Part shown: positions 33,561 to 64,000 of the stretch, one piece after another | Layout: every line of letters starts with the position of its first letter | How positions within the stretch are numbered: position 1 is the first letter of the stretch | Source: an uncultured Alphaproteobacteria bacterium | GTDB lineage: Bacteria > Pseudomonadota > Alphaproteobacteria > VGEJ01 | DNA: 64,000 bases | NCBI GenBank assembly: GCA_913041535.1 | Contig: CAJWJK010000002.1 | Span: forward strand, 138,793-202,792 | Direction of reading: 5' to 3' | The notes under the pieces: generated by a model | Told to the model about the DNA's origin: nothing | What the model saw: only the letters and a program-made list of their open reading frames with translations | Database searches by the model: none | Made by a program: the position numbers and the translations under genes

Positions 33561-33590
33561 AAACGGCCCTTTTGGGCCGTTTGTTTATGC
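33561..33590. terminator. Intrinsic-terminator-like GC hairpin between convergent genes
   Basis: AAACGGCCC-tttt-GGGCCGTTT is followed by GTTTAT on the plus strand. It sits between the 33234..33500 gene and the stop of the minus-strand 33585..34322 gene. Confidence 0.5.
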
Positions 33591-37163: not shown

Positions 37164-40128
37164 TCCGCATAACGACGGCAAGAGAGCTAGAAGAATGTGC
37201 GTGATTGTAAAACACGCTTTTCAAGTATTCCTGATAGTAGTTCTAGGAATTGGCGTGCTCAGGCTAACTTCTGTGGCGTCAGCGGAAGAGTTCTATATTC
37301 CATCGGTCAACAATTTTGGCGGTGTTGGCCTTATGATGACGAGGACTGCGCGTTTTGGAGCTGATGGAGAATTTGCAATCGGGTTCTCGGAGATAGATCC
37401 GTATCGGCGATATTTTATCACAGTTCAAGCTCTGCCATGGCTTGAGGCCACATTTCGCTACTCTGATCTAACAAAGATCCCCTTGGGAGGAGATACTTTT
37501 AAGGATCGGGGTGCGGACCTCAAATTTAAGTTATTGAACGAACAGAAGTACATACCAGCAGTAGCATTAGGCCTACAGGATGGTATTGGCACGGGCTTGT
37601 TTGATGGAGAATATATTGTCGCAAGTAAGAGGTATATGGATTTAGATTTCTCTCTAGGTATTGGATGGGGCTATCTGGGTACTCGCGGTGATATCAAGAA
37701 CCCATTGAGTCTTGTAACAACTTATTTTGATAACAGAGATGCAAATTCTGGTCGTGGCGGTAAATTTAATCCCGCTAATTACTTCTCTGGCAAGAGAGCG
37801 TCTCTTTTTGGGGGAGTGGAGTATTTCACACCTATTGATGGGTTGACCCTCAAAGTAGAGTACGAAGGCAATGATTATTCTGATGAGCCCCGTACAGAGT
37901 TTGGCAACAAAGTAGCTGTTGCAACATCGCCAATAAACTTTGGCATAAATTATAGACCGTTCTCGTGGCTTGATATCGCTGCTGGCCGTGAGCGGGGTTA
38001 TGAAGGTGTGGTCCGTATGGCTATGAGAGCAAACTTCCACACATCTAAAACACCGAAGTTTGATCTACCTCCCGTGCCTTTAAAATCTCGTATGGCAGTC
38101 AAACAGAAAGCAGCGCATGATTCTCTACCAGCCATCGAGGATGTTACGTCAACGCTGAATGATGACTTTGCGATAATAGGACTTAACGTAGATTCTGTTG
38201 AGTTTACCAATCAGAAGGTATTTGTGCGTGTATCGGATGTTATAGACCGTGTGTCGGATTCGGAATTGATACGGGCAGCGCATAGCGCATCGAACGCTTT
38301 TAGCGATGCCGTATCGTCCGTAACTATAATAGGGTCTGATTCGCTTGATGGTATAGAAACGGTTTCATATACAGCATCGGAGCTAACGCAGTTTCAAATT
38401 GTCGATTACTTATTTGATGATCTGGATAAATATGGAGTAGAGGCAGTTGAGTTATCTCACACTGAAGCACAGGTATATCTTAACTCTAGCCTCTCTCGAG
38501 TAGAACAGGAGAAGGCGGCGCTGGCAGTTGTCACAGTCGCCCCTACGCCCTTAGAAAAGGTCACATTTGTCAATATTTCGGACGATCAGGTGTTTAATCG
38601 TTTAACTATATCACGAAAGGAGATCACCAGATCATCACTTGTGAATCAGATGTTTGATGGACTTGAGGAGATGGGATTCTCTGTTGAGGCCGTAGACGTT
38701 TCAGAGGGCGCGGCTACCGTGACTGTTATGTCTAAAACAAATGTTAGCGCGGAGGTGTATCGTCGCGCAGCATGGATTGTTGCTGATTCGGTTGTCTCTT
38801 CAGTCGAAGAGGTAACACTTGTCGGACTGGAAAATGGCCGTGAGATAGAACGTATAACTGTGTTAGCGAGCAGTGACAGCTATGTTGGAGTTAATTCAGG
38901 TAGTAGCGTCATAGACGTATCTAGCATTGAATCTGCGGATGATATCTTTGACGAACTAGCCCAACAGGGTGCACAGGTTGATGCGTTACACTTTACACCT
39001 ACTCGCGCTACGGTATTTGTCACTCCGACCCGTTTTCGGGAGGCAGCACGAAATATTGGGCGGCCGGCTAGGGTTATAGCAAACAGCGCTCCTGCTACGG
39101 TTGAGCAAATATCAATCGTTACTATGGCCGATGGTATGCCCATTAACCATGTAACATTAATGCGCCGTGATCTTGAACGGGCTGTTTCTCGTGAGGGCAG
39201 TGTTGAAGAGTTATGGAAGCAGGCGGAAATGAATGGTGGAGCTGAAGTTCCACAAACTTCCGTGGTCCCGGCGCAAAGATACCCATCATTTAATTGGAGT
39301 TTAACGCCGAATACTCGACAGTACATACATGATGAGGCTCAATTCCTACTGTATCAGTTATTTGCAAGGCTAAATGGAACTCTTGAATATAGTAGGGGGT
39401 TGAGTTTCGAGGGCACCTTATTTGCTAATCTCTATAATAACTTTGAAAAGGCCAGCACAGATTCAAATAGTCTGTTACCAAGGGTACGTAGTGAAATTGT
39501 TAAGTATCTTCAAGGTACGGATAACAAGATCCTTCGGCTTACTGCAAACTATCGTTTTTCGCCAAAGACTGATGTTTATGCACGTGTCTCAGGTGGCATT
39601 TACGAAGAAATGTTTGGGGGCATTGGCGCGGAGGTGCTTTATAGGCCCTTCGGATCACGTTGGGCTATTGGAGCTGATGTTAACCGAGTAAAACAGCGTG
39701 ATTTCCAAGGGGGGTTTGGGTTCTTCGATTATGAAGTAACGACCGGACATGCAAATATCCACTATCAGTTGCCCGTTTATGACATGTCTGCTGCGGTGTA
39801 TCTTGGCCAGTACTTAGCAGGTGATAGAGGCGCTTCATATTTTGTTTGGCGAAATTTTGAAAATGGTATGTCCGTTGGGGGATGGGTGACGCTAACTAAT
39901 GTTCCAGCGAATGTCTTCGGGGAAGGAAGTTTTGATAAGGGGTTTTTCATTCGGATACCGTTCGACGTATTTCTTATGAAATCAACACGAAAGTCCGGTG
40001 TCTTTTCTTTCCAGCCCTTATCGCGGGACGGGGGTCAAATATTGTTAGGCAGCAAACAGCTCTACGAGCTTACTCGAAGTGGAAGTCTTGGTGAACTTTC
40101 TCGAGATTGGGGCTTGGTATTACACTAG
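37150..40128 (+). CDS. YjbH/GfcD-family outer-membrane protein with an internal insertion of four tandem modules
   Basis: 992 aa. The N-terminus (...FYIPSVNNFGGVGLMMTRTARFGADGEFAIGFSEIDPYRRYFITVQALPWLEATFRYSDL...KDRGADLKFKLL...PAVALGLQDGIGTGLFDGEYIVASKRY...GIGWGYLG) matches the YjbH family. The C-terminus is rich in aromatic and Gly residues, consistent with a beta-barrel. The middle region holds four modules of about 87 aa. Confidence 0.7.
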   Translation: MVTINPHNDGKRARRMCVIVKHAFQVFLIVVLGIGVLRLTSVASAEEFYIPSVNNFGGVGLMMTRTARFGADGEFAIGFSEIDPYRRYFITVQALPWLEATFRYSDLTKIPLGGDTFKDRGADLKFKLLNEQKYIPAVALGLQDGIGTGLFDGEYIVASKRYMDLDFSLGIGWGYLGTRGDIKNPLSLVTTYFDNRDANSGRGGKFNPANYFSGKRASLFGGVEYFTPIDGLTLKVEYEGNDYSDEPRTEFGNKVAVATSPINFGINYRPFSWLDIAAGRERGYEGVVRMAMRANFHTSKTPKFDLPPVPLKSRMAVKQKAAHDSLPAIEDVTSTLNDDFAIIGLNVDSVEFTNQKVFVRVSDVIDRVSDSELIRAAHSASNAFSDAVSSVTIIGSDSLDGIETVSYTASELTQFQIVDYLFDDLDKYGVEAVELSHTEAQVYLNSSLSRVEQEKAALAVVTVAPTPLEKVTFVNISDDQVFNRLTISRKEITRSSLVNQMFDGLEEMGFSVEAVDVSEGAATVTVMSKTNVSAEVYRRAAWIVADSVVSSVEEVTLVGLENGREIERITVLASSDSYVGVNSGSSVIDVSSIESADDIFDELAQQGAQVDALHFTPTRATVFVTPTRFREAARNIGRPARVIANSAPATVEQISIVTMADGMPINHVTLMRRDLERAVSREGSVEELWKQAEMNGGAEVPQTSVVPAQRYPSFNWSLTPNTRQYIHDEAQFLLYQLFARLNGTLEYSRGLSFEGTLFANLYNNFEKASTDSNSLLPRVRSEIVKYLQGTDNKILRLTANYRFSPKTDVYARVSGGIYEEMFGGIGAEVLYRPFGSRWAIGADVNRVKQRDFQGGFGFFDYEVTTGHANIHYQLPVYDMSAAVYLGQYLAGDRGASYFVWRNFENGMSVGGWVTLTNVPANVFGEGSFDKGFFIRIPFDVFLMKSTRKSGVFSFQPLSRDGGQILLGSKQLYELTRSGSLGELSRDWGLVLH

Positions 40129-41282: not shown

Positions 41283-41384
41283 TGGCGAACCGTTTGTATG
41301 TTTGTCTGGTTGAGTAATTTAACTATATTGGCACTCTGTAGATTGTTTGTTAATGCATACTTTGGAGGTTACTACCGTTATACC

Positions 41385-42347
41385 ATGCAGCGCTCAAATC
41401 CCAACCTAGGAAGTCAGCCGGTTGAACAGGTCGTTCGTGCTGACGATGTAATAGACCTAAGGTACCTGTTCAGAAGCTGGTGGAGGGGAAGCTGGTTTAT
41501 TATTTTAGCTGCGTTGGCAGGCTTGGCGGTCGGTCTATGGGAGATGACGAAATTTCAACCTATGTATACTGCAGTTATGTTGGTATCTCCGGCTGGTGGA
41601 ACTGACGGAGGTGGTCCCGATTTAAGCGGATTAAAAAGTTTTGCGGCGGTTTTTGGAGTTGGCGGTAGCAGCGGGACCGAAGGTGGTACGGGTAGCTCGT
41701 TCGATCGTTTCGAAGTCCTTCTTGGATCTGTAATTTTGGCTGAACGGCTGCAAGAACGGTATGGTTTGCTCCAGACTGTGTACCGAGGTGCGTGGGATCC
41801 TGATGCACAGGACTGGATCCGGCCGTCGGGCACGCGGTTTGAGCGGAATGAGGCGTTGAGAGAATTCTTCAAGCTTCGAACGTGGAAGGCGCCCAGTATC
41901 TCGTCTCTTGCCCGGTTTATAGGATCAACTGTAAGAGTTGTCACACTTCAGGCAAATGGATTCCGTCAAGTCTCTGTTGTGCATGAGGATCCTCAGTTTG
42001 CAGAGTATTTATTGAGAACTGTCTATTATGAAGCAGATGAGCTTTTACGTGAGCTAGACCAAGAGAGTACGAGGACCCAGAAGCAATACCTTGAGAATAA
42101 AATAGCGACTAGCAAGATCGTTGAGATTCGTACCGGCCTAGTAGGCCTACTGATGCAACAAGAGAATAAGGCAATGCTTTTGCAAAGTGATGCGCCATAC
42201 GCCGCATACATCATTCAGCCGATTAGCGTAGGTAACAGGCCAACGGCGCCAAGCCCGCGGATGTATGCAGGAGCAGGTGTTGCGGTCGGGGCATTTATAG
42301 GACTTTTAGTTGTTTCATTCATATCGATGTTTCGTCGCGAGACTTAA
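41385..42347 (+). CDS. Wzz-like polysaccharide co-polymerase / chain-length determinant (PCP without a kinase domain)
   Basis: The N-terminus IDLRYLFRSWWRGSWFIILAALAGLAVGLW is the Wzz motif plus TM1. A coiled periplasmic region follows. The C-terminus is Pro-rich and carries TM2 (PISVGNRPTAPSP...GVAVGAFIGLLVVSFI). An alternative start is the TTG at 41298. Confidence 0.55.
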   Translation: MQRSNPNLGSQPVEQVVRADDVIDLRYLFRSWWRGSWFIILAALAGLAVGLWEMTKFQPMYTAVMLVSPAGGTDGGGPDLSGLKSFAAVFGVGGSSGTEGGTGSSFDRFEVLLGSVILAERLQERYGLLQTVYRGAWDPDAQDWIRPSGTRFERNEALREFFKLRTWKAPSISSLARFIGSTVRVVTLQANGFRQVSVVHEDPQFAEYLLRTVYYEADELLRELDQESTRTQKQYLENKIATSKIVEIRTGLVGLLMQQENKAMLLQSDAPYAAYIIQPISVGNRPTAPSPRMYAGAGVAVGAFIGLLVVSFISMFRRET

Positions 42348-42371: not shown

Positions 42372-43484
42372 ATGACCTTTAGTTGGAGTATCTTCTTTGT
42401 TTTTCTTTTTCTGTATCGCTGCTTTGTATCCATCATTGCACAATCATCAGTGCAAGAGCTCGGTGATGCTAGTCTGTATCAGCGTGGCGGACGAACTGTG
42501 GGATCAGGGTTTTCGGCCTTGCTTTACGAGGGTCAATCCTTCAATGTGTCAGCCTTTCGGCACATAGGAACGCATGTTACTGAATCGATAGGTACTTTAT
42601 TAAGTATAGCCGGTGGTGGTAATGCGTACCTCACCAATTTGGGTTTTCAAACAATAGCGTTTGTGGGCTTGGTTAAACTGTTGATGTCAGTCGAGCCAAG
42701 CATTCGTCGTTGGTTAGCTCTCGTTTTGATTCTGCCGTCATTTAACTTCTGGACATCAATAGCTTCGAAAGAGGCATTGGTGACGCTCTGCATTTGCATG
42801 ATACTCGCGAACTATGTTCGTATGCAAAAACTTCAGAAGGTTAGAATTATTTCATTAGCAATATTCTCTATCCTTCTCGCTCTTTTGAAACCTCACTATT
42901 TTATTGCCGTAGCTTATCTTTTCGGCGCGACAGTCTTAGCACAAAGGTTTCGGCAGCGTGGAGTTGTGGCTTTATCTGCTGCAGTGATGTCTTTAGCCAT
43001 GTTATACCCAATTGCTACGTTTTTAGATAAGCAAGCTCGCGTAATTGCTACCCACTTCAGAGTTAGTGATAATACTCTTACTAGAGAAATCTATTTTGTA
43101 CATGAGCTGGATATCCTTTTTAAGGCGCCATACGGAATGTTTCAAAGTTTCTTTGGTCCAACAGTGTCCGAGGCTGTTTCAGGTACTCTCGCGATGATGT
43201 CTTTCATCGAAAGCTTATTTCTTGTGGGACTTCTGTTGATGATGATATTGCATCGATTTTGGGATATTCGAGCATTTGAAGCAATTATTGGCTCCGTTAC
43301 GTTGTTTTGGATTTTATTTGTCACTTATCCATTTGGGATTATGAATCCTGGTTCAGCGGTGAGGTACCGGTCGGGGTATCTAGTGCTAGTAGTGTTTGTG
43401 GTTATTTTTGTCTTTGTCCGAGGATTCAATGAGCGTGAAAAGACCACGAGGAGTAGCATGAAAACACCTGCTCTTGCTGAGTGA
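42372..43484 (+). CDS. Polytopic membrane protein, candidate polysaccharide polymerase (Wzy/EpsG-like)
   Basis: 370 aa with about 9 or 10 predicted transmembrane segments. It has no nucleotide-binding motif. It lies between the Wzz-like gene and the glycosyltransferases. The assignment is by context only. Confidence 0.35.
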   Translation: MTFSWSIFFVFLFLYRCFVSIIAQSSVQELGDASLYQRGGRTVGSGFSALLYEGQSFNVSAFRHIGTHVTESIGTLLSIAGGGNAYLTNLGFQTIAFVGLVKLLMSVEPSIRRWLALVLILPSFNFWTSIASKEALVTLCICMILANYVRMQKLQKVRIISLAIFSILLALLKPHYFIAVAYLFGATVLAQRFRQRGVVALSAAVMSLAMLYPIATFLDKQARVIATHFRVSDNTLTREIYFVHELDILFKAPYGMFQSFFGPTVSEAVSGTLAMMSFIESLFLVGLLLMMILHRFWDIRAFEAIIGSVTLFWILFVTYPFGIMNPGSAVRYRSGYLVLVVFVVIFVFVRGFNEREKTTRSSMKTPALAE

Positions 43485-45422: not shown

Positions 45423-46169
45423 ATGATAATTTCTCATAAACATAAGTTCATTTTCATTAAAACCCGAAAGACTGCGGGGACCTCTCTGGAGGTAGCGTTA
45501 TGCAAATATCTTGGTAAGAGTGATATTATTACGCCAATCAGTCCAGAAGATGAAAATACACGTCGTGCCATGGGCTTTATAGCAAGGCAAAACTACAAGA
45601 AATCAATATCAGAGTTCAGAGTAAATGATTTAGTTTATGTGGCGCGTCGTATGCGCAATAGGATGATAGGAAAGCATGGGACATCTTCTGGTGTATGGCC
45701 TTCGCAGTTTTACAATCATATGCCATCGCATCTTGTCCGCGACCAAATAGGCATAGCCATATGGAATCGCTATTACAAATTCTCTATAGAGAGAAACCCT
45801 TGGGATGCAGCAGTATCCCGATACTTTTGGCACTACGGCAATAAGAAGATTTCGCACACAAAGGATAGATTCCGGAATTTCATCCAGAGCGAAATTGGTA
45901 GTCATGTACCAAACTACGATCTTTATAGCATTAATGGAGTGCCAGCGATGGACCTAGTCGTACGGTATGAGGCCCTCTTTTCTGGATTGGAGAAAGTATC
46001 TAGGGTTATTGGATTGTCCGAAAATATTCACGAAGTGATGAAGGAAATAAGGGCAAAAGCACAATTTCGTAGAAACGTTGATTATCGGGAAATGTATGAT
46101 GAGGATAGCAGAATGTTGATTGCCAAACACTTTGCCCGAGAAATATCGTTATTTGGTTATGTATTTTAA
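45423..46169 (+). CDS. Sulfotransferase-family protein (PAPS-dependent, carbohydrate sulfotransferase-like)
   Basis: KFIFIKTRKTAGTSLE is a 5'-PSB-like P-loop. ERNPWDAAVSRYF is a 3'-PB-like R-x-P...S motif. Confidence 0.55.
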   Translation: MIISHKHKFIFIKTRKTAGTSLEVALCKYLGKSDIITPISPEDENTRRAMGFIARQNYKKSISEFRVNDLVYVARRMRNRMIGKHGTSSGVWPSQFYNHMPSHLVRDQIGIAIWNRYYKFSIERNPWDAAVSRYFWHYGNKKISHTKDRFRNFIQSEIGSHVPNYDLYSINGVPAMDLVVRYEALFSGLEKVSRVIGLSENIHEVMKEIRAKAQFRRNVDYREMYDEDSRMLIAKHFAREISLFGYVF

Positions 46170-47364: not shown

Positions 47365-48054
47365 TTAGGGATGCCGCCGCCAAGCGGAAACTAGGAAGAG
47401 AGGCAAGCGCCACGGTCCTTGTGTAGCATAAACACAGGCCAAGTGTTTATGTGCCAAGGTGCTGATTCTGTAAATATCCGTCGTATGATAGTCACCATGA
47501 AAGCCCGAAACATAGCGACCAAGCTTATAAAGATGATTTTCGGTGGGACCAGATAAAATAAGTATCCCCCCAGGTTTTAGTGATTGGCATAAGCATTCAA
47601 TAATAGTCTCTGGGTCCTCGTTGTGTTCTAAGCAGTCGAGAGCGAATACGATATCATAGCAGTCCTTTTTGGCACCAATATTCTTGACTAAATTGGCGTC
47701 AGGCACTAACTCGCAAAGAGCTTTTGCTATTTCGTTATCTTCTTCTGCAGCATGGTAATACGAGTTTTCCGGCAACAAATGGCGCAGTTCACCGCAACCA
47801 GCGCCAAAATCAAGTATCTTTACCGGATTACCAAAACGGGTGGCTAGTCTAACTGCTGCAAACAAACGCCACCAAGCAGCATATGCGGCAAGCCAGTTAC
47901 CATGACAGTATGATGGAACGCAAGTTTCTTCGAGAGCAGAAAATTGTACTTTTAGATTGAAGTGACTCTTTAACAGCTTTCGCCTTTGCAGAATGTGATG
48001 AATCTGAGTTGGGGTACTAAACAACTGGTTGTGGGTAGTGTGAGCCTGAGACAT
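47365..48054 (-). CDS. Class I SAM-dependent methyltransferase
   Basis: ILDFGAGCGEL is motif I. A downstream acidic motif II is present (VFALDCLEH). Confidence 0.65.
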   Translation of the reverse strand: MSQAHTTHNQLFSTPTQIHHILQRRKLLKSHFNLKVQFSALEETCVPSYCHGNWLAAYAAWWRLFAAVRLATRFGNPVKILDFGAGCGELRHLLPENSYYHAAEEDNEIAKALCELVPDANLVKNIGAKKDCYDIVFALDCLEHNEDPETIIECLCQSLKPGGILILSGPTENHLYKLGRYVSGFHGDYHTTDIYRISTLAHKHLACVYATQGPWRLPLFLVSAWRRHP

Positions 48055-48096: not shown

Positions 48097-50013
48097 ATGC
48101 AGAAAATCTTTACGGCTGCAATGGGGCGAACCGGGACCAATAACTTGGCTGTATTATTTAACAAGTTCGGCCAGGGGTGCATAGCAGAACATGAGCCTCC
48201 GGCTCTACTACTCCAACAACTCCAGGAGCAACCGTTCTTTGATCGATATCCAAGTCTTCGTCCTAAGGAGAGATTGGCACAAGTGGGGCGAGATCTGCAA
48301 CGGCGTTACATTGTCACTGACGAGATGCTTGGGCGCGGGCGGGCACTAAACTGGTATGATTCTGGCGACACGGATAAACTGCTTAAATTGGTGAATTGGA
48401 GGCTTCGACGGATCGACCGCTTTTCAAAACGTGGTTACAAACACTACGTTGAGTCGAGTCAGTTCTTTTTGCGTACGTACTGTTATCAAGTGCACAATGT
48501 TATACCTCACGTCGGTGTAATTAAGTTAGTACGGGATCCGCTTGAAACGGCTCGAAGTTCAGCAAATCGTAAGAAAGCCTTGTTTCAGAATAACTTACCG
48601 CCGGATTGTAGAAGTAATCATTTTCGCATCAAAGAATGGCAGGATCTAACGCCATTTCAACATTATGTTCATACATGGATAGAGACTGAGGTACGGTGGG
48701 AGGAATTTGTTAAATCGACAGACCTTAAGAGATTTTTCGTCATTGAAACACGGGATCTTAGCAATAGTGAGCGGATAACCGAAATGTTCAAATTTTTTGG
48801 CATTGAACATAGGCCCGTTAAAGATCTCCGTCCGACTAACACAAATACTGAGATATCTCTTCCGGGCACACAGGTTTCTATACGTGACCATGAGGAATTT
48901 ATGAGAGTGGTGGATAAACTTCCTCAGACACTTCGGGACCGGATACCGCAACTGGAACGTTATGTTTCAGATCGAGACGAATCGGCCAGCAGTTTTTCCT
49001 TGCGTCTTGGAGAGGCCCGCAAGAGTCGGCCGGTAATGGGCTCTCCACAACTCGGGCGTCTTATTGCTGATTTTCCAATGACCGCGGTCGATATTGGAGC
49101 ACGTGGTGGCGTAATTCAGGACCTGCTGCCAATTGCTCAGGTGGTTGATGCAGTGGGGTTCGAGCCGGATGAAGAAGAATGTGTCCGTCTTAGCGCAGCG
49201 GCAGCCCTAAAAGAGGGGCCGTGGCGTAGTGAACAGTATCTTCCTGCGGCGCTTTCTGGCAACAGTGGGCCGCGAACACTGTATCTCACGCGTCATCGTG
49301 GGACATCTTCAATGATGAAGCCTATCCCGGGCTTTGGGGAAAGTTACTCTCGACCTGATTACTATTTTATCGAGGGGAAAGTTGAGGTTGATACAATTAC
49401 GCTTGATCAGGCTGTAATAGAACACGAACTAGGTAAACCGGTATATTTAAAACTCGATATTGAGGGGATGGAAAAAGAGGTTATTGAGGCTGCACCATTG
49501 ACCATGAATCATCTTCTTGCAGTCCGCACAGAGGCTGTATTTCTACAGCCAAGAAAAGGTCAGCCGTCGTTTCACGAACTCGATGGTTGTCTACGGAGCT
49601 TTGGTTTTATTCCGATGGGATTTGAGGAAATACACCATTGGCGGCGGTTAAGTCAGGTTAAACCGCCAGAGACTATTCCTGGTCCGGTACCCTACTCGCG
49701 AGGCCAACTTGCGCACTGCGATATGCTTTATCTTAAGGACTTTCAGTTGATGTCTGAAGAGACAGAGGTGGAAATCACGCGCTTAATTCAAATGGCGTTT
49801 ATTGCGCTTTGTTATGACTATGTGGATCACGCCCTAGCAATCTTCTCACTCCCCGCAGTCGAGTCGCTTTTAGTGGGGACTTATGGTATTGATATTAAAA
49901 GAGAAATTAGTATTGTGTCCCATGAGCTACTTGCACGTCACCGTCGGACAAGGAGGCGCAAGTCATGGCTTGGCTTCAGGGGGACAACATCTCGTAGGTT
50001 GCGTCCAACATAG
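48097..50013 (+). CDS. Bifunctional sulfotransferase-domain / FkbM-family methyltransferase fusion protein
   Basis: The N-terminal half has sulfotransferase motifs (MQKIFTAAMGRTGTNNL 5'-PSB, KLVRDPLETARS 3'-PB). The C-terminal half is an FkbM domain (MTAVDIGARGGV...LKLDIEGMEKEVIEAAP). The ATG at 48097 avoids the overlap with the upstream convergent gene that the ORF-track start (47986) creates. Confidence 0.6.
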   Translation: MQKIFTAAMGRTGTNNLAVLFNKFGQGCIAEHEPPALLLQQLQEQPFFDRYPSLRPKERLAQVGRDLQRRYIVTDEMLGRGRALNWYDSGDTDKLLKLVNWRLRRIDRFSKRGYKHYVESSQFFLRTYCYQVHNVIPHVGVIKLVRDPLETARSSANRKKALFQNNLPPDCRSNHFRIKEWQDLTPFQHYVHTWIETEVRWEEFVKSTDLKRFFVIETRDLSNSERITEMFKFFGIEHRPVKDLRPTNTNTEISLPGTQVSIRDHEEFMRVVDKLPQTLRDRIPQLERYVSDRDESASSFSLRLGEARKSRPVMGSPQLGRLIADFPMTAVDIGARGGVIQDLLPIAQVVDAVGFEPDEEECVRLSAAAALKEGPWRSEQYLPAALSGNSGPRTLYLTRHRGTSSMMKPIPGFGESYSRPDYYFIEGKVEVDTITLDQAVIEHELGKPVYLKLDIEGMEKEVIEAAPLTMNHLLAVRTEAVFLQPRKGQPSFHELDGCLRSFGFIPMGFEEIHHWRRLSQVKPPETIPGPVPYSRGQLAHCDMLYLKDFQLMSEETEVEITRLIQMAFIALCYDYVDHALAIFSLPAVESLLVGTYGIDIKREISIVSHELLARHRRTRRRKSWLGFRGTTSRRLRPT

Positions 50014-50122: not shown

Positions 50123-51022
50123 CTAAAGACAATACCCGTATTCTTTCAGTGGCAAGCCGGTTTTCTCCACTAGTGTGAGATTGCTTTGGCGGTATCGTTC
50201 GCGCAATAGTTTCTGCCATCGGTGGGGAATTTCCAAACGGTGTTTCTGGCCTCGCTTTAGGGAATCAAGAAAATACCTACGCAACAGATTGGGAACATAC
50301 TTTTTTAAGCTGAGGTTTGGGAGAATTACTCTCCGAAGGTGGTTATAGCGCACCTCGTTCAGTGTTCGAGCCACATTTTCACGATCATTACCAATTAATT
50401 GTATTCCTTCCTCAGGCGGTATGCCGAGAGTACAACAGAGTTTACCAATAAACGTCACCGGATCATCTCTGAGCTGTTCGTATAGAAACACGTGAACGCT
50501 ATCAGCTCCAAAAAGTTGTTGGTAACACGAGACTAACTTATCGTATTCCAGGTGGTGTAGCGTTCCATTAACACGATTGTTCCAAGATGCCTCTATCCAA
50601 TTATCAAATGAGGATGGGGTATAGTGTTTGCCTAGCTGCTGCCTATAAAAAGAAGGTAAATAGTCGAGCTGTTCTCGGATACAGACAATGATTGTTGCTT
50701 CTTTTGAGATTTCCTTAAGCCTATTTGCAATTAATCCACGGTCCGCATGTTGGGGGAGACAGAATAGTTCTACAGATACGACAACAATATCACTTTTATT
50801 GAGGTGCTGACCCACGTGTTCGTCATAACCACGTTGGGCTAGTTTGGAGTCGTATTCAAGGGAGTCGCATCCGTAAATTAGAGTTGCCCATTCCTCTACT
50901 TTTCGGGAGCTCCAGGGTTTTCCCACTAGCCTTATCTGGTGGTGACGCGCAAACAGCAGATTCTGTAACGTGGTGGTAGCAGTTTTTGGGTACCCAATAT
51001 GTAAGATCGGCGTTGATGTCAT
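50123..51022 (-). CDS. Sulfotransferase-family protein
   Basis: ILHIGYPKTATTTLQ (5'-PSB) and IREQLDYLPSFY (3'-PB-like). The start is taken at the internal Met (MTSTPIL) at 51022. The ORF-track start is 51061. Confidence 0.6.
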   Translation of the reverse strand: MTSTPILHIGYPKTATTTLQNLLFARHHQIRLVGKPWSSRKVEEWATLIYGCDSLEYDSKLAQRGYDEHVGQHLNKSDIVVVSVELFCLPQHADRGLIANRLKEISKEATIIVCIREQLDYLPSFYRQQLGKHYTPSSFDNWIEASWNNRVNGTLHHLEYDKLVSCYQQLFGADSVHVFLYEQLRDDPVTFIGKLCCTLGIPPEEGIQLIGNDRENVARTLNEVRYNHLRRVILPNLSLKKYVPNLLRRYFLDSLKRGQKHRLEIPHRWQKLLRERYRQSNLTLVEKTGLPLKEYGYCL

Positions 51023-51182
51023 GCGTCTAAAGAAAAGTTGTGAGTGAATCGTGGCAACCACATTCTGACTGACCAGATATTAAGGGACTAGCCAACGAAA
51101 ACCAATCAGTATGGAGATATTAACTGTGTCTACTATACTAAAACGAAAACTTGATGTGCTCACAAATCTGGATGATCGGTAG

Positions 51183-52973
51183 CTAAGGGAGCTTACCAGC
51201 CATCGCTTTAAATGACTCACTATTGCTGACAAGGTACTCGTAACTACCAGTTGCAACTATGCGACCACCTTCAATGATGTGAATAGCATCACTAAATTGA
51301 ACGGTATGAAGACGGTGTGCGATAGTAACGGTTGTTATTGTACCGGCTAAATCTCTAATAGTTTCAGTGACGATACTTTCAGTCACATTGTCCAGTGAAC
51401 TCGTAGCTTCATCCAGAACTAGAAGCTGCGGTCGGCGGTAGAGTGCACGGGCAATGGCTAGGCGTTGCAATTGTCCGCCACTGAAACGAACACCGCTCTC
51501 ACCGAGTCGTGTGTCATAACCATCTGGTAGGTCCCCAACAATAAAATCATGGATATGCGCTTTCTTTGCTGCTTCAATAACTGAACTGGTATCAATCTCA
51601 TCATAGGAGACAGCAAAAGCAATGTTCTGTGTGATACTATCGTCGAGGTAATGTACGTGCTGGGGCACATAAGCTACTTGTTGCTGCCATGCCCGAAGAT
51701 TTTCGTGTGTGAGAATCACATCATCTATAAGGACCTTTCCATTTGTGGGTACCAATAACCCCATTATGGTTTCGACCAGCGTAGATTTCCCTGCGCCCGT
51801 CGCTCCCACAAAGGCTATGCTGCTGCCTTTTTCGACAACTAAACTAATGTTATCGATAACATCTGTGTCTTCGCTGGGATAGTGGTATGACACTTGGTCA
51901 AGGGTAATCTCTTTAAAGAAAGGCAGGGGTGGAGGAGGTTGCTGATCGGTAGTAACGGGCGCTGTAGCTGCGCTACTAAATTCTTCCACCAAACTTTTTG
52001 CCACGGCATAAGATGTCCGCATTTGACTAATCGATTGGAATAGTTGGGAGAGAAGTGGGATTAGCCTATACCCAGCCATCGCGAATAAGGCAATAATTGC
52101 AATGCTATCTGACGAGCGGCCCTCTGAATCTAAGGTCGATAGCACCACCGCTAGCAGCCCTACAAACACGACTGTTTCGATCAGGTAGCGAGGTAGCTGC
52201 GCAATCAAGACTTTGCCAATTCCGATACGCGACAATCGTTTAGCAGCCATCCAAAAAAGGTTGGAGAAGTAATTTTCCCCGCCTTGAAGTTTAAGTTCCT
52301 TAATACCTCTAAATGCCTCATCTGTAGTCCGAAATGCTTGCTCCGTGGCAATGCGACCCTGATGACCTAACCAGGTTGAACGATAGCGAATCAATAAATA
52401 GATACAGACGTAGATGCTTCCTAAGCTTAGTACTGCAAGTCCTGTTACCATGGGTTCTTGCCATAGGAGAAACGCCAATATTGCAATTACGGTCAAGGCG
52501 TTTGAGAACACCATGATACCAGCAACCAAGTAACCAGATGTGAGCTGGGCTACCTCCACTAGGAGATTCTTGCGAAGTTCCCCTGTGTTGAGGGTAAGAA
52601 ACGCCTCATAACGTTGTTCTAGATAATGGCGCATACGTCGGTACGACAGGCGGTGTATCATCGTCTGTGCAAAATAGGTGCGAAAAAACAATGATGCTGC
52701 ACCTACAATATTTCGGAAAATGATCACAAAAATTAGTCCCAACCCGCTGTATGTTAGAAAATCTGTGTCACTCGAACTCCCCAAAGTTTCGCGGGCCTGC
52801 GATAATATTTGCGAACTACTTATTAGTGATGGATCTGCAACAATGCGGACGTAGGCGACAATTGAGCCGATGCCTGCCACTTCAGCAGCCGATAAGACAA
52901 TTGCCAAAAATAGAACCCATATAGCTAGCCAACGGTCCTGTCTTGATAATATTTTAAGGAGTTTTACTAACAA
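51183..52973 (-). CDS. ABC exporter with a fused permease and ATPase (MsbA/PglK/NdvA-like type I exporter)
   Basis: 596 aa with a six-helix N-terminal transmembrane domain. The nucleotide-binding domain carries Walker A GATGAGKST, signature FSGGQLQR and Walker B LLVLDEATS. Confidence 0.85.
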   Translation of the reverse strand: MLVKLLKILSRQDRWLAIWVLFLAIVLSAAEVAGIGSIVAYVRIVADPSLISSSQILSQARETLGSSSDTDFLTYSGLGLIFVIIFRNIVGAASLFFRTYFAQTMIHRLSYRRMRHYLEQRYEAFLTLNTGELRKNLLVEVAQLTSGYLVAGIMVFSNALTVIAILAFLLWQEPMVTGLAVLSLGSIYVCIYLLIRYRSTWLGHQGRIATEQAFRTTDEAFRGIKELKLQGGENYFSNLFWMAAKRLSRIGIGKVLIAQLPRYLIETVVFVGLLAVVLSTLDSEGRSSDSIAIIALFAMAGYRLIPLLSQLFQSISQMRTSYAVAKSLVEEFSSAATAPVTTDQQPPPPLPFFKEITLDQVSYHYPSEDTDVIDNISLVVEKGSSIAFVGATGAGKSTLVETIMGLLVPTNGKVLIDDVILTHENLRAWQQQVAYVPQHVHYLDDSITQNIAFAVSYDEIDTSSVIEAAKKAHIHDFIVGDLPDGYDTRLGESGVRFSGGQLQRLAIARALYRRPQLLVLDEATSSLDNVTESIVTETIRDLAGTITTVTIAHRLHTVQFSDAIHIIEGGRIVATGSYEYLVSNSESFKAMAGKLP

Positions 52974-60822: not shown

Positions 60823-62022
60823 TTAGAGCAAATCGTCTTGGTTATCGGGTGGAATTGGCGCCATAGTAAGGAATGGTCGGATAACTACTCCGTCGCGGAT
60901 TTGCAGCGGTTCTGTGGGTAGACCTAATAGAGTGCGCACTAACTGAGCTGGAAAGTTTCCACCAGCCGCAAATGAACCGCCAACTGACCCGCTAAATCTA
61001 GATCCAGCATCAAATAAAAGAGGCTGCTGTCCGTTTGCCAACACGATATCAAAATCACCAGCGCCGTCGACCTGAAAGGCTGAACACAACTTTTTTGCAT
61101 AGTCTAATACAGTGGGATCCATTGTTACCCGATGGCCCGTGCTGGTAGGCCAGAAAGGGTTTCTTAGTTGACGCAGGCGTGCCGCAATGTCGGAGAGTTT
61201 TCCGGCCGTCGCTATGCAATCAACATCAAATACTGGTCCTTCATAATAGGGAACGCAAATCAGCCGTTCGAAAGTCATGTGTTCTTGTTCCATGGCGATG
61301 CAAAGGTCTTCAAAACTACCGGTGCCGCAAAAGCGTTCGGGTAGCAGCGGGTGGAAACTATCTTTCTTTGCATCGGCGATGAGCACCCCTCGAGAACCAC
61401 GACCCTCGCGTGGTTTGATGACAACGCGATGATCAGGATATCCCATGGTGTACACGGCATCTTTTGCCTCATAGAGCGTGTTGACGCCAATGAATGGTCC
61501 GGTATCGATCTCTAGGTCTTTAAGCTTTTGAAGCATCAATAATTTGTCTGTCATAACACGGACTGTATCTATGCTACTAACGGACGGTTTGATGCCTTTA
61601 CTTAATAATACTTCGCGGTGTTTTGCAGCGAGCCGGGACTCTGCTTCGGACAATGGTATATATACATCCAAGCTGATCTGTTGGTGCAGGGAAAGCAAGG
61701 AATCAAGATACCGTTCCTCATCATTCTCTGCCATTGGAAGGACATCAAAACGGTCACATAAAAGGCGTCCAGCTGCGTTCGGGTCAGCATCAATGCCGAC
61801 TATTCGTGCATGAAAATCAGTCGCGGCACGTAATGCTCGAATAAAATCATAGATCAAGCGTCCACCGACGCACGTAACGCACACGGTCACTGTAGGAACG
61901 GACGCGTGAGACCCTTTGATGGCCACTCGACTAGTAATAGGACAAGAGGCTTGACCCTGTCCTATGAAAGGAACCGTCCACAGAAATGTCGAGACGAGCG
62001 TTACTGATCTGGTGGGGGCCAT
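60823..62022 (-). CDS. ATP-grasp domain enzyme
   Basis: VVIKPREGRGSRGVLIAD is the ATP-grasp central-domain motif. The N-terminus VTCVGGRLIYDFIRALR resembles a pre-ATP-grasp Rossmann fold. The ORF-track start overlaps the upstream PhyH gene by 92 nt. GTG at 61890 is an alternative start. Confidence 0.55.
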   Translation of the reverse strand: MAPTRSVTLVSTFLWTVPFIGQGQASCPITSRVAIKGSHASVPTVTVCVTCVGGRLIYDFIRALRAATDFHARIVGIDADPNAAGRLLCDRFDVLPMAENDEERYLDSLLSLHQQISLDVYIPLSEAESRLAAKHREVLLSKGIKPSVSSIDTVRVMTDKLLMLQKLKDLEIDTGPFIGVNTLYEAKDAVYTMGYPDHRVVIKPREGRGSRGVLIADAKKDSFHPLLPERFCGTGSFEDLCIAMEQEHMTFERLICVPYYEGPVFDVDCIATAGKLSDIAARLRQLRNPFWPTSTGHRVTMDPTVLDYAKKLCSAFQVDGAGDFDIVLANGQQPLLFDAGSRFSGSVGGSFAAGGNFPAQLVRTLLGLPTEPLQIRDGVVIRPFLTMAPIPPDNQDDLL

Positions 62023-62884
62023 ATACCTGACGGTTCGCTCTGTCTAAAAGAGAGTCTGTTCCAGAATTAGGTGATTTGCTTAGAAGATATCTCAATGAGA
62101 TACGCGGAGCCGCGCTGTTATTCGGGCCTGTCCCATGCAATGTTAAACAGTGAAAACTAAACACAGTCCCTGGCTGGCCTACTACCGTTTCTTCGGTACA
62201 CGTTTCATGGTTTCCATTGAAGTCTGAATAGTACCATAGACTTGTGTTAAGGTGGGATCGGCGTAGAAGGTGAGGGTAGTGTGTCATTCCAAGTTTATGG
62301 CTGCCAGATAAAATATGTAGCGCTGAGTCGCTTTCGTCAACTTCGTCAAGATAGATATATACCGTAACAAAATTTGAATTGGGACGAGTCTTATCCTGAT
62401 GGAAGTCAGTTGATAGAAAATACTGAATATCCTGAAACTCGTCTTTAATAAATGGATTTAGGTTTGGCCGTCCAACTTCGCTAAGATAGCCAGTCATCCA
62501 GTCTGGAATAACGCTATGTGGCACTGACCGGATTACTGATTTCTTCATAATGGAGTAGTCTTTTCCAACCAATTCTGTTGCAAAACACTTAAACTCATAA
62601 TTATTCTCAATAAATGCTAAGTCGACTTCCGGGCTGATTAAGAGATTGTGATCAGCTCTCCCAGGAGCATAATTACTCCACCGCCCTTTTTCATTGAAGG
62701 CATCTTCGCTGTGATAGAATATGGTGCTATCAATTGGTCTGCGGTCATCGATCCATTGCCGTAACGAGTGGCAAGGTTTTGGATCAAGAATTGTTCCACC
62801 GGTTGCCCACCCCTTCTCGGAGAATTCGGAGATGGTAAAGTGCGTCTTGGAGGTATGGGGTTTCGATAATTTAGGATCTGTCAT
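61931..62884 (-). CDS. PhyH-family Fe(II)/2-oxoglutarate-dependent dioxygenase
   Basis: FHQD is an HxD facial-triad motif. HCLTLHGTGPN...RISLRY supplies the distal His and the Arg for 2OG binding. Confidence 0.7.
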   Translation of the reverse strand: MTDPKLSKPHTSKTHFTISEFSEKGWATGGTILDPKPCHSLRQWIDDRRPIDSTIFYHSEDAFNEKGRWSNYAPGRADHNLLISPEVDLAFIENNYEFKCFATELVGKDYSIMKKSVIRSVPHSVIPDWMTGYLSEVGRPNLNPFIKDEFQDIQYFLSTDFHQDKTRPNSNFVTVYIYLDEVDESDSALHILSGSHKLGMTHYPHLLRRSHLNTSLWYYSDFNGNHETCTEETVVGQPGTVFSFHCLTLHGTGPNNSAAPRISLRYLLSKSPNSGTDSLLDRANRQVYGPHQISNARLDISVDGSFHRTGSSLLSYY

Positions 62885-62944
62885 TTTACTACCGGCAGCA
62901 ACATTGTTCTGTGCGGCGTTGATTCAATATGCTCGATTTGGTTT

Positions 62945-64000
62945 TCATGATGCGGAAGAATCTCGGGAAGATCCACCGTCATTATTGGACGAACTGGTGT
63001 CATCATAGCGCCGTTGATTGAGAGCGTGCACATACGCACGAGCACAGGCCATATTTGGATCGGCGCCCGAACCCTCGCCTATAAGATCTCTTGTACCATT
63101 ACCTAGTTGTACAGTGACCTTAGTTTGTGTGTTGTCATTCATAGAAAGGCCGTTGAGGCGAACAAAAGCCAACTCATCGTCGTGAGGCACCAACTGCTTT
63201 ATTGCGCTTATAATAGCGGAGAATGAACTTTCACCGGTTGCATTTGCAGTCATTGTTTCTGGCCTGCCTCCCACAGAAAGGGTGACATTTGCCTCTGCTG
63301 TTGCGTCGGCCATAGTCGTAATGTTTAGTGACGTCACTCCAATGTGCTCTTTCTTCTTGAAAGTGGCATCTTTAACGGTATCAATTATTTCTTCGGCGAG
63401 CGATCCAATATCTTCATCAGAGATTTCCTTCTTGCTGTCAGCTAGAGCTTTGAAGCGTTCAAATGCTTCAGCTAAGGCATTTTCGCCAAGAGTGTAACCC
63501 AATTCAGATAGCTTAACGCGAAGAGCGTGGCGACCCGAGTGTTTTCCCATAACAAGCTGTGTCCCGCTGGCACCAACAGCTTTTGGGTTGATTATCTCAT
63601 ATGTTCCTCGATGACTAATGACACCATGCTGATGAATTCCCGATTCATGTGCAAATGCATTGCTGCCAACAATGGCCTTATTTGGCGGAACCACGAATCC
63701 TGTTATGTTTGACACGAGTCGTGACGCTTCTGTGAGAAACTCCGTATCTATGCCAGTGTGGTACGGCATCGCGTCATACCGGGTCTTCAGTCCCATGACG
63801 ATCTCTTCGAGAGATGCGTTGCCAGCTCTCTCTCCAAGGCCATTAATCGTACATTCGACCTGAAGAGCACCTGCTTGAACAGCCGACAGAGAGTTTGCTG
63901 TCGCAAGTCCGAGATCATCGTGACAATGTACAGATATTCGCACTTTATCAATTCCAGGAACCCTTCGCAGGAGATCTTTGATGAGCGATGAGAACTCGTG
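62945..64000 (-). CDS. leuA: 2-isopropylmalate synthase-like (LeuA/DRE-TIM family) protein. The C-terminal part is present and the N-terminus lies beyond the window end.
   Basis: HCHDDLGLATANSLSAVQAGALQVECTINGLGERAGNASLEE is the LeuA catalytic TIM-barrel motif. The C-terminal LeuA_dimer regulatory domain is present. The frame remains open to position 64000. Confidence 0.8.
   Translation of the reverse strand, partial: HEFSSLIKDLLRRVPGIDKVRISVHCHDDLGLATANSLSAVQAGALQVECTINGLGERAGNASLEEIVMGLKTRYDAMPYHTGIDTEFLTEASRLVSNITGFVVPPNKAIVGSNAFAHESGIHQHGVISHRGTYEIINPKAVGASGTQLVMGKHSGRHALRVKLSELGYTLGENALAEAFERFKALADSKKEISDEDIGSLAEEIIDTVKDATFKKKEHIGVTSLNITTMADATAEANVTLSVGGRPETMTANATGESSFSAIISAIKQLVPHDDELAFVRLNGLSMNDNTQTKVTVQLGNGTRDLIGEGSGADPNMACARAYVHALNQRRYDDTSSSNNDGGSSRDSSAS

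Follow-up and report, generated by a model that had tools for sequence, protein, structure and literature searches.

The window analysed here, a 64-kb stretch of DNA from an uncultured marine bacterium, carries on its forward strand a single gene in which a divergent domain of sulfotransferase fold (the N-module) is joined through a short linker to an FkbM-family methyltransferase (the C-module). The surrounding locus, which extends from ~33.5 to at least 62 kb of the window, contains GT4 glycosyltransferases, a Wzz-like protein, Wza/GfcC, YjbF/YjbH, several methyltransferases and an ABC exporter, along with three further sulfotransferase-type genes. The exporter is a fused ABC_membrane/ABC_tran protein whose best matches are PglK, MsbA and HepA, all of them below cut-off. 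A PhyH gene is located at 61931-62884. Neither a PAPS-synthesis gene nor an ABC-2 transporter was seen among the scanned ORFs of the window, and no tRNA was found in the 64 kb. The fused gene, its internal features and its nearest neighbors are listed in Table 1.

Table 1 Coordinates of the fused gene, its internal features and its flanking genes within the window.
Feature	Position	Strand	Residues	Remarks
Class-I methyltransferase gene	47365..48054	-		Divergent, 42 bp upstream of the fusion; PF13489 E 7e-10; syntenic in L002, L020, L024
Whole fused gene	48097..50013	+		ATG to TGA; 638 codons plus stop
N-module	48097..48966	+	1-290	Divergent PAPS-sulfotransferase-fold domain; unannotated family of ~290-aa proteins
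GRTGTNNL	48124..48147	+	10-17	Predicted 5'-phosphosulfate-binding loop between strand 1 and helix 1
AEHEPP	48184..48201	+	30-35	Candidate catalytic base region; E31 and E33 invariant in close homologs
RDPLETARS	48532..48558	+	146-154	Predicted 3'-phosphate-binding motif at a strand/helix junction
Inter-domain linker, SDRDESASSFSLRLGEARKSRPV	48967..49035	+	291-313	No counterpart in split relatives
T5 run inside linker	48993..48997	+		Fused/split switch by one-base length change
Latent TAATG	49034..49038	+		-1 frame TAA sharing one base with the ATG of Met314
C-module	49036..50010	+	314-638	Complete FkbM-family SAM methyltransferase plus helical C-terminal extension; PF05050, TIGR01444
VDIGARGG	49087..49110	+	331-338	SAM-binding motif I (DxGAxxG); follows a strand in the model
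LKLDIEGMEKEV	49447..49482	+	451-462	Second conserved FkbM motif (K-x-D-x-E-G-x-E), within the PF05050 match
Basic patch RHRRTRRRKSW	49936..49968	+		Within a 36-residue C-terminal helix (aa 600-635), a long helix in the model; arginine-rich run kept in split and fused homologs
Canonical sulfotransferase gene	50123..51061	-		Separate gene, convergent with the fusion; PF00685 E 1.5e-10
PglK/MsbA-type ABC exporter gene	51183..52973	-		Same neighbor on the L002, L006, P0012 and P0013 contigs

The fused reading frame is real and under selection, being neither a chance frame nor an assembly artefact. An earlier note on this DNA had read one continuous ORF from the ATG at 48097, and a single forward frame does remain open from there to the TGA ending at 50013, encoding 638 residues plus a stop in place of the 639 residues first counted. 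The mechanically called ORF has an alternative start, a TTG at 47986. Because MQ(K/x)IFTA opens the N-termini of all 30 homologs, the ATG is supported as the start. All four sequence strings singled out at that time are present (AAMGRTGTNNL at aa 7-17, KLVRDPLETARS at aa 143-154, VDIGARGGV at aa 331-339 and LKLDIEGMEKEV at aa 451-462), while the module sizes of ~250 and ~300 residues are revised to ~290 for the N-module, 23 for the linker (291-313) and 325 for the C-module (314-638). The frameshift or stop that the note had named as a danger to its reading does not appear: the identical 638-residue protein occurs on at least seven contigs from independent JGI, ENA/TARA, Logan and NCBI assemblies, and a relative from another metagenome (L009), which shares 88% nucleotide and 91% amino acid identity with the window protein, aligns collinearly, free of gaps, and keeps its frame open across the junction. 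Synonymous and non-synonymous differences from L009 number 54:26 in the N-module, 30:22 in the C-module and 2:6 in the linker. A sequencing or assembly artefact masking a frameshift or stop between two genes might be suspected from the split state of the majority of relatives and from the homopolymer run at the junction, where a 1-nt error would shift the frame, but it is effectively refuted, and was rejected, given these multiple assemblies, the in-frame L009 sequence with a T-run of other length (T4) and two 51%-identical proteins that are likewise fused.

The C-module is a member of the FkbM family, as the earlier note had proposed. Matches to both PF05050 (E 7.9e-12, 46.1 bits against a cut-off of 22.7) and TIGR01444 (47.8 bits against 37.7) exceed the curated cut-offs, and the top Foldseek match of the full-length model is the FkbM methyltransferase 2py6 (E 1.3e-4), with pLDDT >90 across the C-module. 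Residues D, G, A, R, G and G of motif I are invariant in A5, as are K, D, E, G, E and E of the second motif. The module thus shares both motifs, the family cut-offs and the top structure with a family that includes the FkbM of FK506 biosynthesis, and it is predicted to transfer methyl groups. More than 659 homologs stand alone as proteins of ~330 aa each. This subfamily differs from other FkbM proteins in a conserved C-terminal helical extension of ~130 residues and an arginine-rich tail, and here also in its covalent attachment to a sulfotransferase-fold domain. The basic patch in this tail may serve in membrane or partner binding.

In 16 of 19 readable loci, the N-module is encoded just upstream of an FkbM gene or is fused to one. 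Twelve distinct loci have the adjacent, separate arrangement, with spacings of -4 to ~+60 nt, four are fusions that fall into two separate clades, and the remaining three have no adjacent FkbM gene. The covalent link had been called unusual from the window sequence, and with fusions in four of 19 loci it is indeed rare; the question of whether orthologs are split or fused is answered by both states. This conserved adjacent pairing strengthens the case for a functional link between the two modules and makes the fusion itself less exceptional. Independent fusions of N-module relatives to another methyltransferase family were found in P0107 and P0153, and the P0019 contig has a Methyltransf_23 gene a short way downstream of the N-module, past an 88-aa ORF. 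The metagenome scan returned 11 loci, the decisive L009 among them. Species-representative genomes yielded two loci only, both in uncultured Alphaproteobacteria MAGs, with a scan pattern that misses the window's own sequence. These homolog-bearing MAGs suggest an alphaproteobacterial origin for the window. A tblastn search of the plasmid collection gave no match, and in the literature we found no description of an FkbM plus sulfotransferase architecture or of a fused sulfotransferase/methyltransferase.

The junction retains features of a two-gene arrangement. The 23-residue linker is predicted to be disordered, with pLDDT <50 at residues 296-307 of the full-length model, and the T-run within it measures five bases in the window and four in L009, both fused, and three in the split L024. 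Simulated deletion of one nucleotide from the T-run of the window produces the same split as in L024, where, at TAATG, the stop of a 304-aa N-module gene actually overlaps the start of a 325-aa FkbM gene. Both Met314 and the latent TAATG are kept in the window and in L009. The two modules are usually encoded by separate, translationally coupled neighbors; in the window lineage the upstream stop would have been lost, turning ~20 codons of former tail or spacer into a flexible linker. Fusion through this linker may fix a 1:1 ratio and co-localize the two activities.

A fusion with no functional consequence is unlikely, although several features of the junction point that way. In such a case, stop loss would have been near-neutral, or a separate FkbM protein would still be made from Met314, and the two enzymes would act independently on different positions or residues. 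The disordered, freely evolving linker is consistent with this, as are retention of Met314 with the latent TAATG, the two-protein form of most relatives and the near-identical L024, in which loss of one T splits the gene and leaves two intact ORFs. The AF2 full-length model likewise shows no confident inter-domain interface (pTM 0.61), but its alignment was unpaired with only three rows spanning both domains, so the model is uninformative on the interface and the missing interface is weak evidence. Against neutrality, FkbM fusions have arisen on at least two occasions, a different methyltransferase family has been fused as well, the fused state has been kept across the 12% nucleotide divergence that separates the window from L009, and the P0002/P0003 clade has no Met at the position equivalent to Met314.

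The N-module has the fold of PAPS-dependent sulfotransferases, among which it is very divergent, as its modelled structure and the conservation of its motifs show. All of the top 36 Foldseek matches are sulfotransferases. The tyrosylprotein sulfotransferases TPST1 and TPST2 rank first in both fold searches, the best structural matches include OLS-ST and CurM-ST, NDST is also among the matches, and sulfotransferases score above kinases by ~5 Z units. The closest solved folds are the tyrosylprotein sulfotransferases, the heparan-sulfate 3-O-sulfotransferases and the CurM/OLS domains, at an identity of only 12-16% and without HMM-level membership. The N-module differs from solved sulfotransferases in a family-specific helical insert of ~80 residues (aa 36-112) and in conserved motifs of its own (AEHEPP, YxESSQFF, WxETELR and NTN).

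Two motifs carry the assignment to PAPS binding, and both had been spotted in the window sequence before any homologs were compared; they prove invariant across the family. In the first, GRTGTNNL, R11 and G13 never vary among 31 close homologs and G10 hardly does, and all three are kept in 29 of 29 distant homologs alignable at the loop. The structure model places this motif in a strand-loop-helix, with GRTGT directly after strand 1. The second comprises R146 and S154, eight residues apart in IKLVRDPLETARS and invariant in three sets of homologs (31/31, 90/90 and 95/95). The best local hhalign match lines these two residues up with RDPSERVLS (HS3ST1) and RDGRASVHS (TPST2) at a non-significant E of ~0.03, a comparison in which only the 3'-phosphate-binding register is informative. 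Four acidic residues (E31, E33, E119 and E196) are also invariant or nearly so, and all 29 aligned distant homologs carry E or D at position 33. E33 is a tentative candidate for the catalytic base, judged by the spacing in 3-OST and TPST: it stands 22 residues after R11, a distance equal to that from Lys to Glu in 3-O-sulfotransferase. We infer that the N-module uses PAPS and is catalytically competent.

Sequence profiles place the N-module in the sulfotransferases only by way of its relatives. No curated sulfotransferase HMM passes its cut-off on the module itself, the best being Sulfotransfer_3 (E 0.0045, 17.7 bits against a cut-off of 27), and the NCBIfam search gave no match. Comparison of the family profile with the two canonical sulfotransferases next door (hhalign) was not significant. 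A PDB sequence search with the protein alone returned no match at E up to 10, and the family profile returned two chance-level matches only, one of which, SgdX2, aligned on both PAPS motifs. Among 95 distant relatives, Sulfotransfer_3 matches occur in 28 and Sulfotransfer_1 matches in 26. One of the methyltransferase-fused relatives, P0107, matches the N-module profile at E 1e-13 and passes both PF00685 (29.2 against 22) and PF13469 (27.8 against 27), so HMM membership is reached transitively only. The sulfotransferase call of the earlier note therefore stands on invariant motifs and on the bridge through distant relatives to Sulfotransfer_1 and Sulfotransfer_3; the direct HMM search it had proposed as a check failed. 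The family comprises 279 clusters at 50% identity of proteins of ~290 aa each, which in their sources are labelled 'hypothetical' or are hidden inside 'FkbM family methyltransferase'.

The N-module might keep the sulfotransferase fold without decorating the final product, either as a non-catalytic recognition or scaffold partner of FkbM or by adding sulfate as a transient leaving group, as in the CurM/OLS domains. The rank of OLS-ST and CurM-ST among the structural matches is compatible with this, and tight pairing with one methyltransferase subfamily could mean an obligate complex. However, no thioesterase or eliminating partner is conserved alongside the N-module, and N-modules exist without an adjacent FkbM gene. 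The strict retention of the PAPS motifs and several acidic residues across a very divergent family further argues against a dead domain, and we regard a non-decorating role as distinctly unlikely. It is a little more doubtful still that the N-module is a P-loop kinase or other nucleotide-dependent transferase, which would pair phosphate with methyl as in the kinase-methyltransferase WbdD. The GRTGTNNL loop has no Walker-A lysine (GK[ST]), R-x7-S, a motif specific to sulfotransferases, is kept without exception across the homologs, and the structural scores separate the module from kinases; moreover, relatives score above the Pfam thresholds for sulfotransferases, and kinase families do not recur.

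All readable loci are glycan-assembly clusters, with GT4s, a flippase or ABC exporter, sugar aminotransferases, NeuB and cytidylyltransferases. A sugar is therefore the probable acceptor, and action of the two modules on the same or neighboring positions is plausible. Bacterial neighborhoods that bring together sulfotransferases, PAPS synthetases and PhyH dioxygenases fused to methyltransferases are proposed to act on proteins or peptides (PMC2938197). By analogy with them, and given the PhyH gene in the window and the leading rank of TPST1 and TPST2, the acceptor here could be imagined as a protein, peptide, lipid or small molecule, but the TPST match is one of fold at only 12-14% identity and all readable loci are devoted to glycans, making such an acceptor very improbable.

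On balance, we hypothesize that the gene encodes a two-headed tailoring enzyme that sulfates (with PAPS) and O-methylates (with SAM) the glycan of the surrounding polysaccharide locus, a reading that we hold with somewhat better than even confidence. The N-module would bind PAPS via the GRTGT loop and the R146/S154 motif and pass sulfate to a glycan hydroxyl, and the C-module would add an O-methyl group to the same residue or one close by. The two reactions would take place in the cytoplasm on a lipid-linked intermediate, before the glycan leaves through the PglK/MsbA-type ABC exporter next door and, at the outer membrane, the Wza/GfcC-YjbH machinery. Coordinated dual decoration, as the earlier note suggested for one sugar position or neighboring positions, would fit this scheme.

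The nearest characterized analogue of the proposed chemistry is the pair NoeE and NoeI, the latter listed in the FkbM family. In Rhizobium sp. NGR234, the PAPS sulfotransferase NoeE and the SAM 2-O-methyltransferase NoeI both decorate the reducing-end fucose of the Nod factor, and S. fredii HH103 has noeI in a nodABCIJnolO'noeI operon and no noeE (PMC4881576). NoeE and NoeI differ from the protein described here in being separate and in acting on a lipo-chitooligosaccharide signal, whereas the predicted substrate here is a surface polysaccharide. Heparan sulfate N-deacetylase/N-sulfotransferase (NDST) offers a precedent for a sulfotransferase fused to a second tailoring domain that acts on the same residue, although this is a Golgi enzyme of eukaryotes that carries its sulfotransferase at the C-terminal end and has a deacetylase as the partner domain. 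The uncharacterized metagenomic proteins P0107 and P0153 share the order of sulfotransferase then methyltransferase, but their methyltransferases are of the Methyltransf_23/11/25 type and their sulfotransferase parts resemble the canonical Pfam families more closely.

WbdD of E. coli O9a is a bifunctional kinase-methyltransferase with a helical C-terminal region that caps O-antigen chains. It resembles the protein described here as a two-domain tailoring enzyme that combines an anionic group with methylation in a polysaccharide pathway, yet it has a kinase instead of a sulfotransferase, a methyltransferase of another class and the reverse domain order. By extension, the module pair or fusion could be a WbdD-like terminator that places a sulfate-plus-methyl cap at the non-reducing end, sets chain length and licenses export through the PglK/MsbA-type exporter that is its recurrent neighbor, with the conserved helical, arginine-rich C-terminus as a membrane or partner anchor. 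We consider such capping a long shot. WbdD is partnered by an ABC-2 transporter, Wzm/Wzt, whereas the conserved neighboring exporter in our case resembles PglK/MsbA and the scanned ORFs include no ABC-2 transporter. In place of a kinase plus class-I methyltransferase with a coiled-coil ruler, the protein has a sulfotransferase-like N-module and an FkbM-type methyltransferase with a 36-residue C-terminal helix, and we found no sign of capping. If true, capping would represent a new chemistry and a new class of terminator for ABC-exporter-dependent sulfated polysaccharides.

These results overturn no concept, as multi-domain glycan-tailoring enzymes are well known, and so are clusters rich in sulfotransferases and methyltransferases. 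As one polypeptide, the fused protein lends itself to assays of both activities, and it may become a chemo-enzymatic tool for making sulfated, methylated glycans. The N-module family is missed by Pfam and NCBIfam and thus represents an unannotated sulfotransferase family, which implies that the sulfation capacity of marine and freshwater metagenomes has been under-counted. This family is tied to a specific FkbM subfamily as a translationally coupled pair that has repeatedly been fused, a Rosetta-stone-type link that predicts a conserved sulfotransferase-methyltransferase module in bacterial surface glycans.

The fused gene is read directly from the window as one uninterrupted plus-strand frame running from the ATG at 48097 to a stop codon that ends at 50013. 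This agrees with the continuous ORF described in an earlier note made from the sequence, and all four peptide strings quoted there are found in the translation; the length, however, is 638 residues plus the stop codon rather than 639 aa. A mechanical ORF call would also allow a TTG start at 47986, and the ATG, separated by 42 bp from a methyltransferase gene that is transcribed divergently, is the likely start because the equivalent of its MQKIFTA begins 30 homologs. The identical protein occurs on at least seven contigs from independent JGI, ENA/TARA, Logan, and NCBI assemblies. A fused relative from a separate metagenome, L009, shares 88% DNA identity with the window gene and is gap-free and in frame through the junction. 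Synonymous to non-synonymous changes between the two genes number 54:26 in the N-terminal module (N-module) and 30:22 in the C-terminal module (C-module), with no synonymous excess in the 23-residue linker (2:6). An artefactual ORF is rejected by the independent contigs, the in-frame junction of L009, and this substitution pattern.

By its profile matches and motifs, the C-module (residues 314–638) is a complete FkbM-family methyltransferase, exceeding the cut-offs of both PF05050 (46.1 bits vs 22.7) and TIGR01444 (47.8 bits vs 37.7). The SAM motif VDIGARGG and a second motif, KLDIEGMEKE, are invariant in close homologs, and the top Foldseek match of the full-length model is 2py6, a structure annotated as FkbM. 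Its FkbM subfamily yields more than 659 matches at E ≤ 1e-10, nearly all of them stand-alone proteins of ~330 aa. These share a conserved C-terminal extension (~130 residues) that includes HHWRR and PYSRGQ motifs as well as an arginine-rich tail. Within the window protein, a single predicted 36-residue helix bears the conserved arginine run RRTRRRK, common to fused and stand-alone FkbM partners; this helix may serve to anchor the protein to a membrane or a partner. The sole other long matches to the full-length query, P0004 and P0005 (~780 aa), lack the N-module and represent a different multi-domain FkbM architecture, with apparently two tandem FkbM-like SAM motifs (VDIGAMALE and LDIGANYG) and a long C-terminal region.

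Assignment of the N-module is less direct. The earlier note had called it sulfotransferase-like from its motifs, and profile searches uphold the FkbM half of that reading, but the sulfotransferase match falls below cut-off. Pfam and NCBIfam models return no sulfotransferase match to the whole 638-aa protein, and the isolated N-half matches Sulfotransfer_3 alone, at E 0.0045 and 17.7 bits vs a cut-off of 27. PDB sequence searches gave nothing significant, nor did comparison of the N-module family profile with the two neighboring canonical sulfotransferases. GRTGT is located in the strand-1/helix-1 loop, where the Walker-A lysine is absent, and RDPLETARS occupies a strand/helix junction, its arginine and serine set at the canonical R-x7-S spacing. 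Neither R146 nor S154 varies in 31 close homologs or in distant sets of 90 and 95, and G10, R11, and G13 are kept in all homologs whose N-terminus aligns. Sulfotransferases are the only families to recur among the weak Pfam matches of close family members. Among the 95 distant relatives from an exhaustive profile search, 28 match Sulfotransfer_3 and 26 match Sulfotransfer_1; one protein, P0107, combines an E 1e-13 match to the N-module profile with scores above both Pfam gathering cut-offs. The N-module is thus placed in the sulfotransferase superfamily, as a very divergent member, by fold, motif conservation, and transitive homology rather than by a passing HMM. Its predicted PAPS site is probably working, and the invariant E33 and E119 are candidates for the catalytic base, E33 by a spacing argument that compares it with the arrangement in 3-OST and TPST.

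The N-module falls in a family of stand-alone proteins that has gone unannotated. A word-indexed search recovered 33 proteins of ~290–305 aa, labelled 'hypothetical protein' or nameless at source and without a Pfam domain in any case (0/33), and the exhaustive search recovered 279 clusters (50% identity) at E ≤ 1e-3, nearly all of 260–305 aa. Of 185,579 species-representative genomes, just two, both uncultured Alphaproteobacteria MAGs, were recovered with the N-module, and a plasmid collection gave zero matching records.

An AF2 model of the full-length protein, built from a block alignment of 3 fused proteins, 29 N-modules, and 51 FkbMs, has a mean pLDDT of 93.2, a pTM of just 0.61, and pLDDT <50 at residues 296–307. 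The protein is accordingly modelled as two rigid domains with a flexible tether between them. The missing predicted interface is weak evidence because only three alignment rows span both domains. A PDB structural search with this model found no entry aligning over both.

Location of the fused gene, its neighbors, and features of related loci (window coordinates unless a locus is named)
Feature	Location	Strand	Observation
Housekeeping genes	1–32 kb		COX1, glycine-cleavage T and P proteins, ETF-QO, TldD
277-aa ORF	31281–32114	+	Unmatched in Pfam (E up to 0.001)
Surface-polysaccharide locus	~33.5 kb to at least 62 kb		
Group-4-capsule-like export genes	33585–40128		YjbF/GfcB, 962-aa Wza/GfcC-like protein (Poly_export, multiple SLBB domains, C-terminal GfcC domain), 992-aa YjbH
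Wzz-like protein	41298–42347		
370-aa ORF	42372–43484	+	Between Wzz-like and Methyltransf_24 genes; no Pfam (E up to 0.001) or NCBIfam (E up to 1e-5) match
248-aa sulfotransferase-type ORF	45423–46166	+	Sulfotransfer_2, 21.0 vs 22 bits, just under cut-off, full-length match; syntenic in L002
Linker T-run	48993–48997		T5
Arginine-run helix (aa 600–635)	49897–50010		
Sulfotransferase-type gene	50123–51061		
PglK/MsbA-type ABC exporter	51183–52973		
Sulfotransferase-type gene	52995–54098		
Genes near window end	60823–63943	-	PylC-like ATP-grasp enzyme, PhyH-family dioxygenase, HMGL-like/LeuA-dimer protein
N-module gene directly upstream of FkbM gene	L002/L003/L010, L024, P0012 contig, P0013 contig, L004, L005, L006, L008, L012, L015, L016, L025	same	Spacing -4 to ~+60 nt
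N-module fused to FkbM	Window, L009, P0002, P0003/L001		
FkbM not adjacent to N-module	P0019 contig, L013, L017		
Split pair	L024:3087–4978		Both ORFs intact; set against window 48993–49038 and L009
DUF7033 gene	L001:11938–13305, L015:5848–7242, P0012 and P0013 contigs		Order N-module, FkbM, DUF7033
AsnB-like amidotransferase	L001:8338–9951, L004:383–2230, L017:2202–3995, P0012 contig		Immediately upstream of N-module
AsnB-like amidotransferase	L006:1659–3464		Nearby, not immediate neighbor

Besides export genes, the polysaccharide locus contains several GT4 glycosyltransferases, two Methyltransf_24 genes and one Methyltransf_23 gene, a PIG-L deacetylase, a class-III aminotransferase, a formyltransferase, and a CMP-sugar-type cytidylyltransferase. 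Related loci have the exporter in common with the window, along with PIG-L, the aminotransferase, and additional sulfotransferases. This genomic context makes a lipid-linked glycan the most likely acceptor, which would be modified in the cytoplasm ahead of its export. A protein or peptide acceptor is a minor alternative, for which bacterial neighborhoods combining sulfotransferases with methyltransferase-fused PhyH and proposed to act on protein or peptide substrates (Iyer et al., PMC2938197) offer a parallel, given the PhyH gene in the window. Several neighbors merit separate mention. The 248-aa ORF is, from its profile match, probably a fourth sulfotransferase-type gene of the locus, and the 370-aa product may be a membrane protein of polymerase or ligase type. 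The PglK/MsbA-type exporter and Wzz-like protein form an unusual export mix with the capsule-type genes, and the genes near the window end suggest that the glycan bears an unusual side chain, either acyl or amino-acid-derived.

Among characterized systems, the closest chemistry is that of the NGR234 Nod factor, in which the same fucose is methylated by NoeI and sulfated by NoeE, separate enzymes (PMC4881576). Fusion of a sulfotransferase with a second tailoring domain has a precedent in NDST, and the pairing of anionic-group transfer with methylation has one in WbdD; the window exporter is not of the Wzm/Wzt type. Literature searches turned up no published account of a sulfotransferase–FkbM fusion.

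Orthologs were compared as split or fused, a check proposed in the earlier note, at 19 distinct loci with readable context: 12 are split-adjacent, 4 fused, and 3 without an adjacent FkbM gene. On one of these three, the P0019 contig, a Methyltransf_23 gene lies close downstream of the N-module gene with an 88-aa ORF between. Two further neighbors recur. A DUF7033 protein (~430–460 aa) is encoded directly 3' of the FkbM gene in four divergent loci; none was found among the scanned window ORFs. An AsnB-like amidotransferase (GATase_7 and Asn_synthase, ~540–615 aa) precedes the N-module elsewhere, though not adjacently in the window or L002, and hints that the same glycans contain amidated uronic acids.

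The junction itself shows how close the two arrangements are. The upstream gene of the split locus L002 ends ...GCG CGA TGA, and its FkbM gene begins at the ATG embedded there, so that the two overlap by 4 nt. The window N-module instead runs beyond ...LERYV through 23 residues (SDRDESASSFSLRLGEARKSRPV) to Met314, which aligns with the start region of stand-alone FkbMs. The linker T-run is T4 in L009 and T3 in L024, a split near-relative nearly identical to L009 minus one T. The shifted frame of L024 stops at a TAA sharing a base with the Met314 ATG (TAATG), giving a 304-aa gene and a 325-aa gene. Either a natural polymorphism between fused and split forms or a sequencing error in the homopolymer could account for this split. 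Removing one T from the window in silico gave the identical outcome; a single-nucleotide change therefore separates the fused gene from a classical translationally coupled pair.

In a neighbor-joining tree the window protein and L009 cluster with split P0008 and P0009, and the fused P0002 and P0003 with split P0006 and P0007, so fusion or fission occurred at least twice. Two distant N-module relatives, P0107 (434 aa) and P0153 (473 aa), are also sulfotransferase-then-methyltransferase fusions, with a class-I partner (Methyltransf_23/11/25), not FkbM. The earlier reading of a sulfotransferase-like domain fused to an FkbM methyltransferase is supported, with two corrections: the sulfotransferase call has the basis given above in place of a passing HMM, and the covalent link, described there as unusual and indeed rare, is the less common version of a conserved gene pair and does not stand alone as a curiosity. 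Gene pairing and repeated fusions together indicate that the link between the sulfotransferase fold and methyltransferases is old and recurrent, with covalent fusion its rare state.
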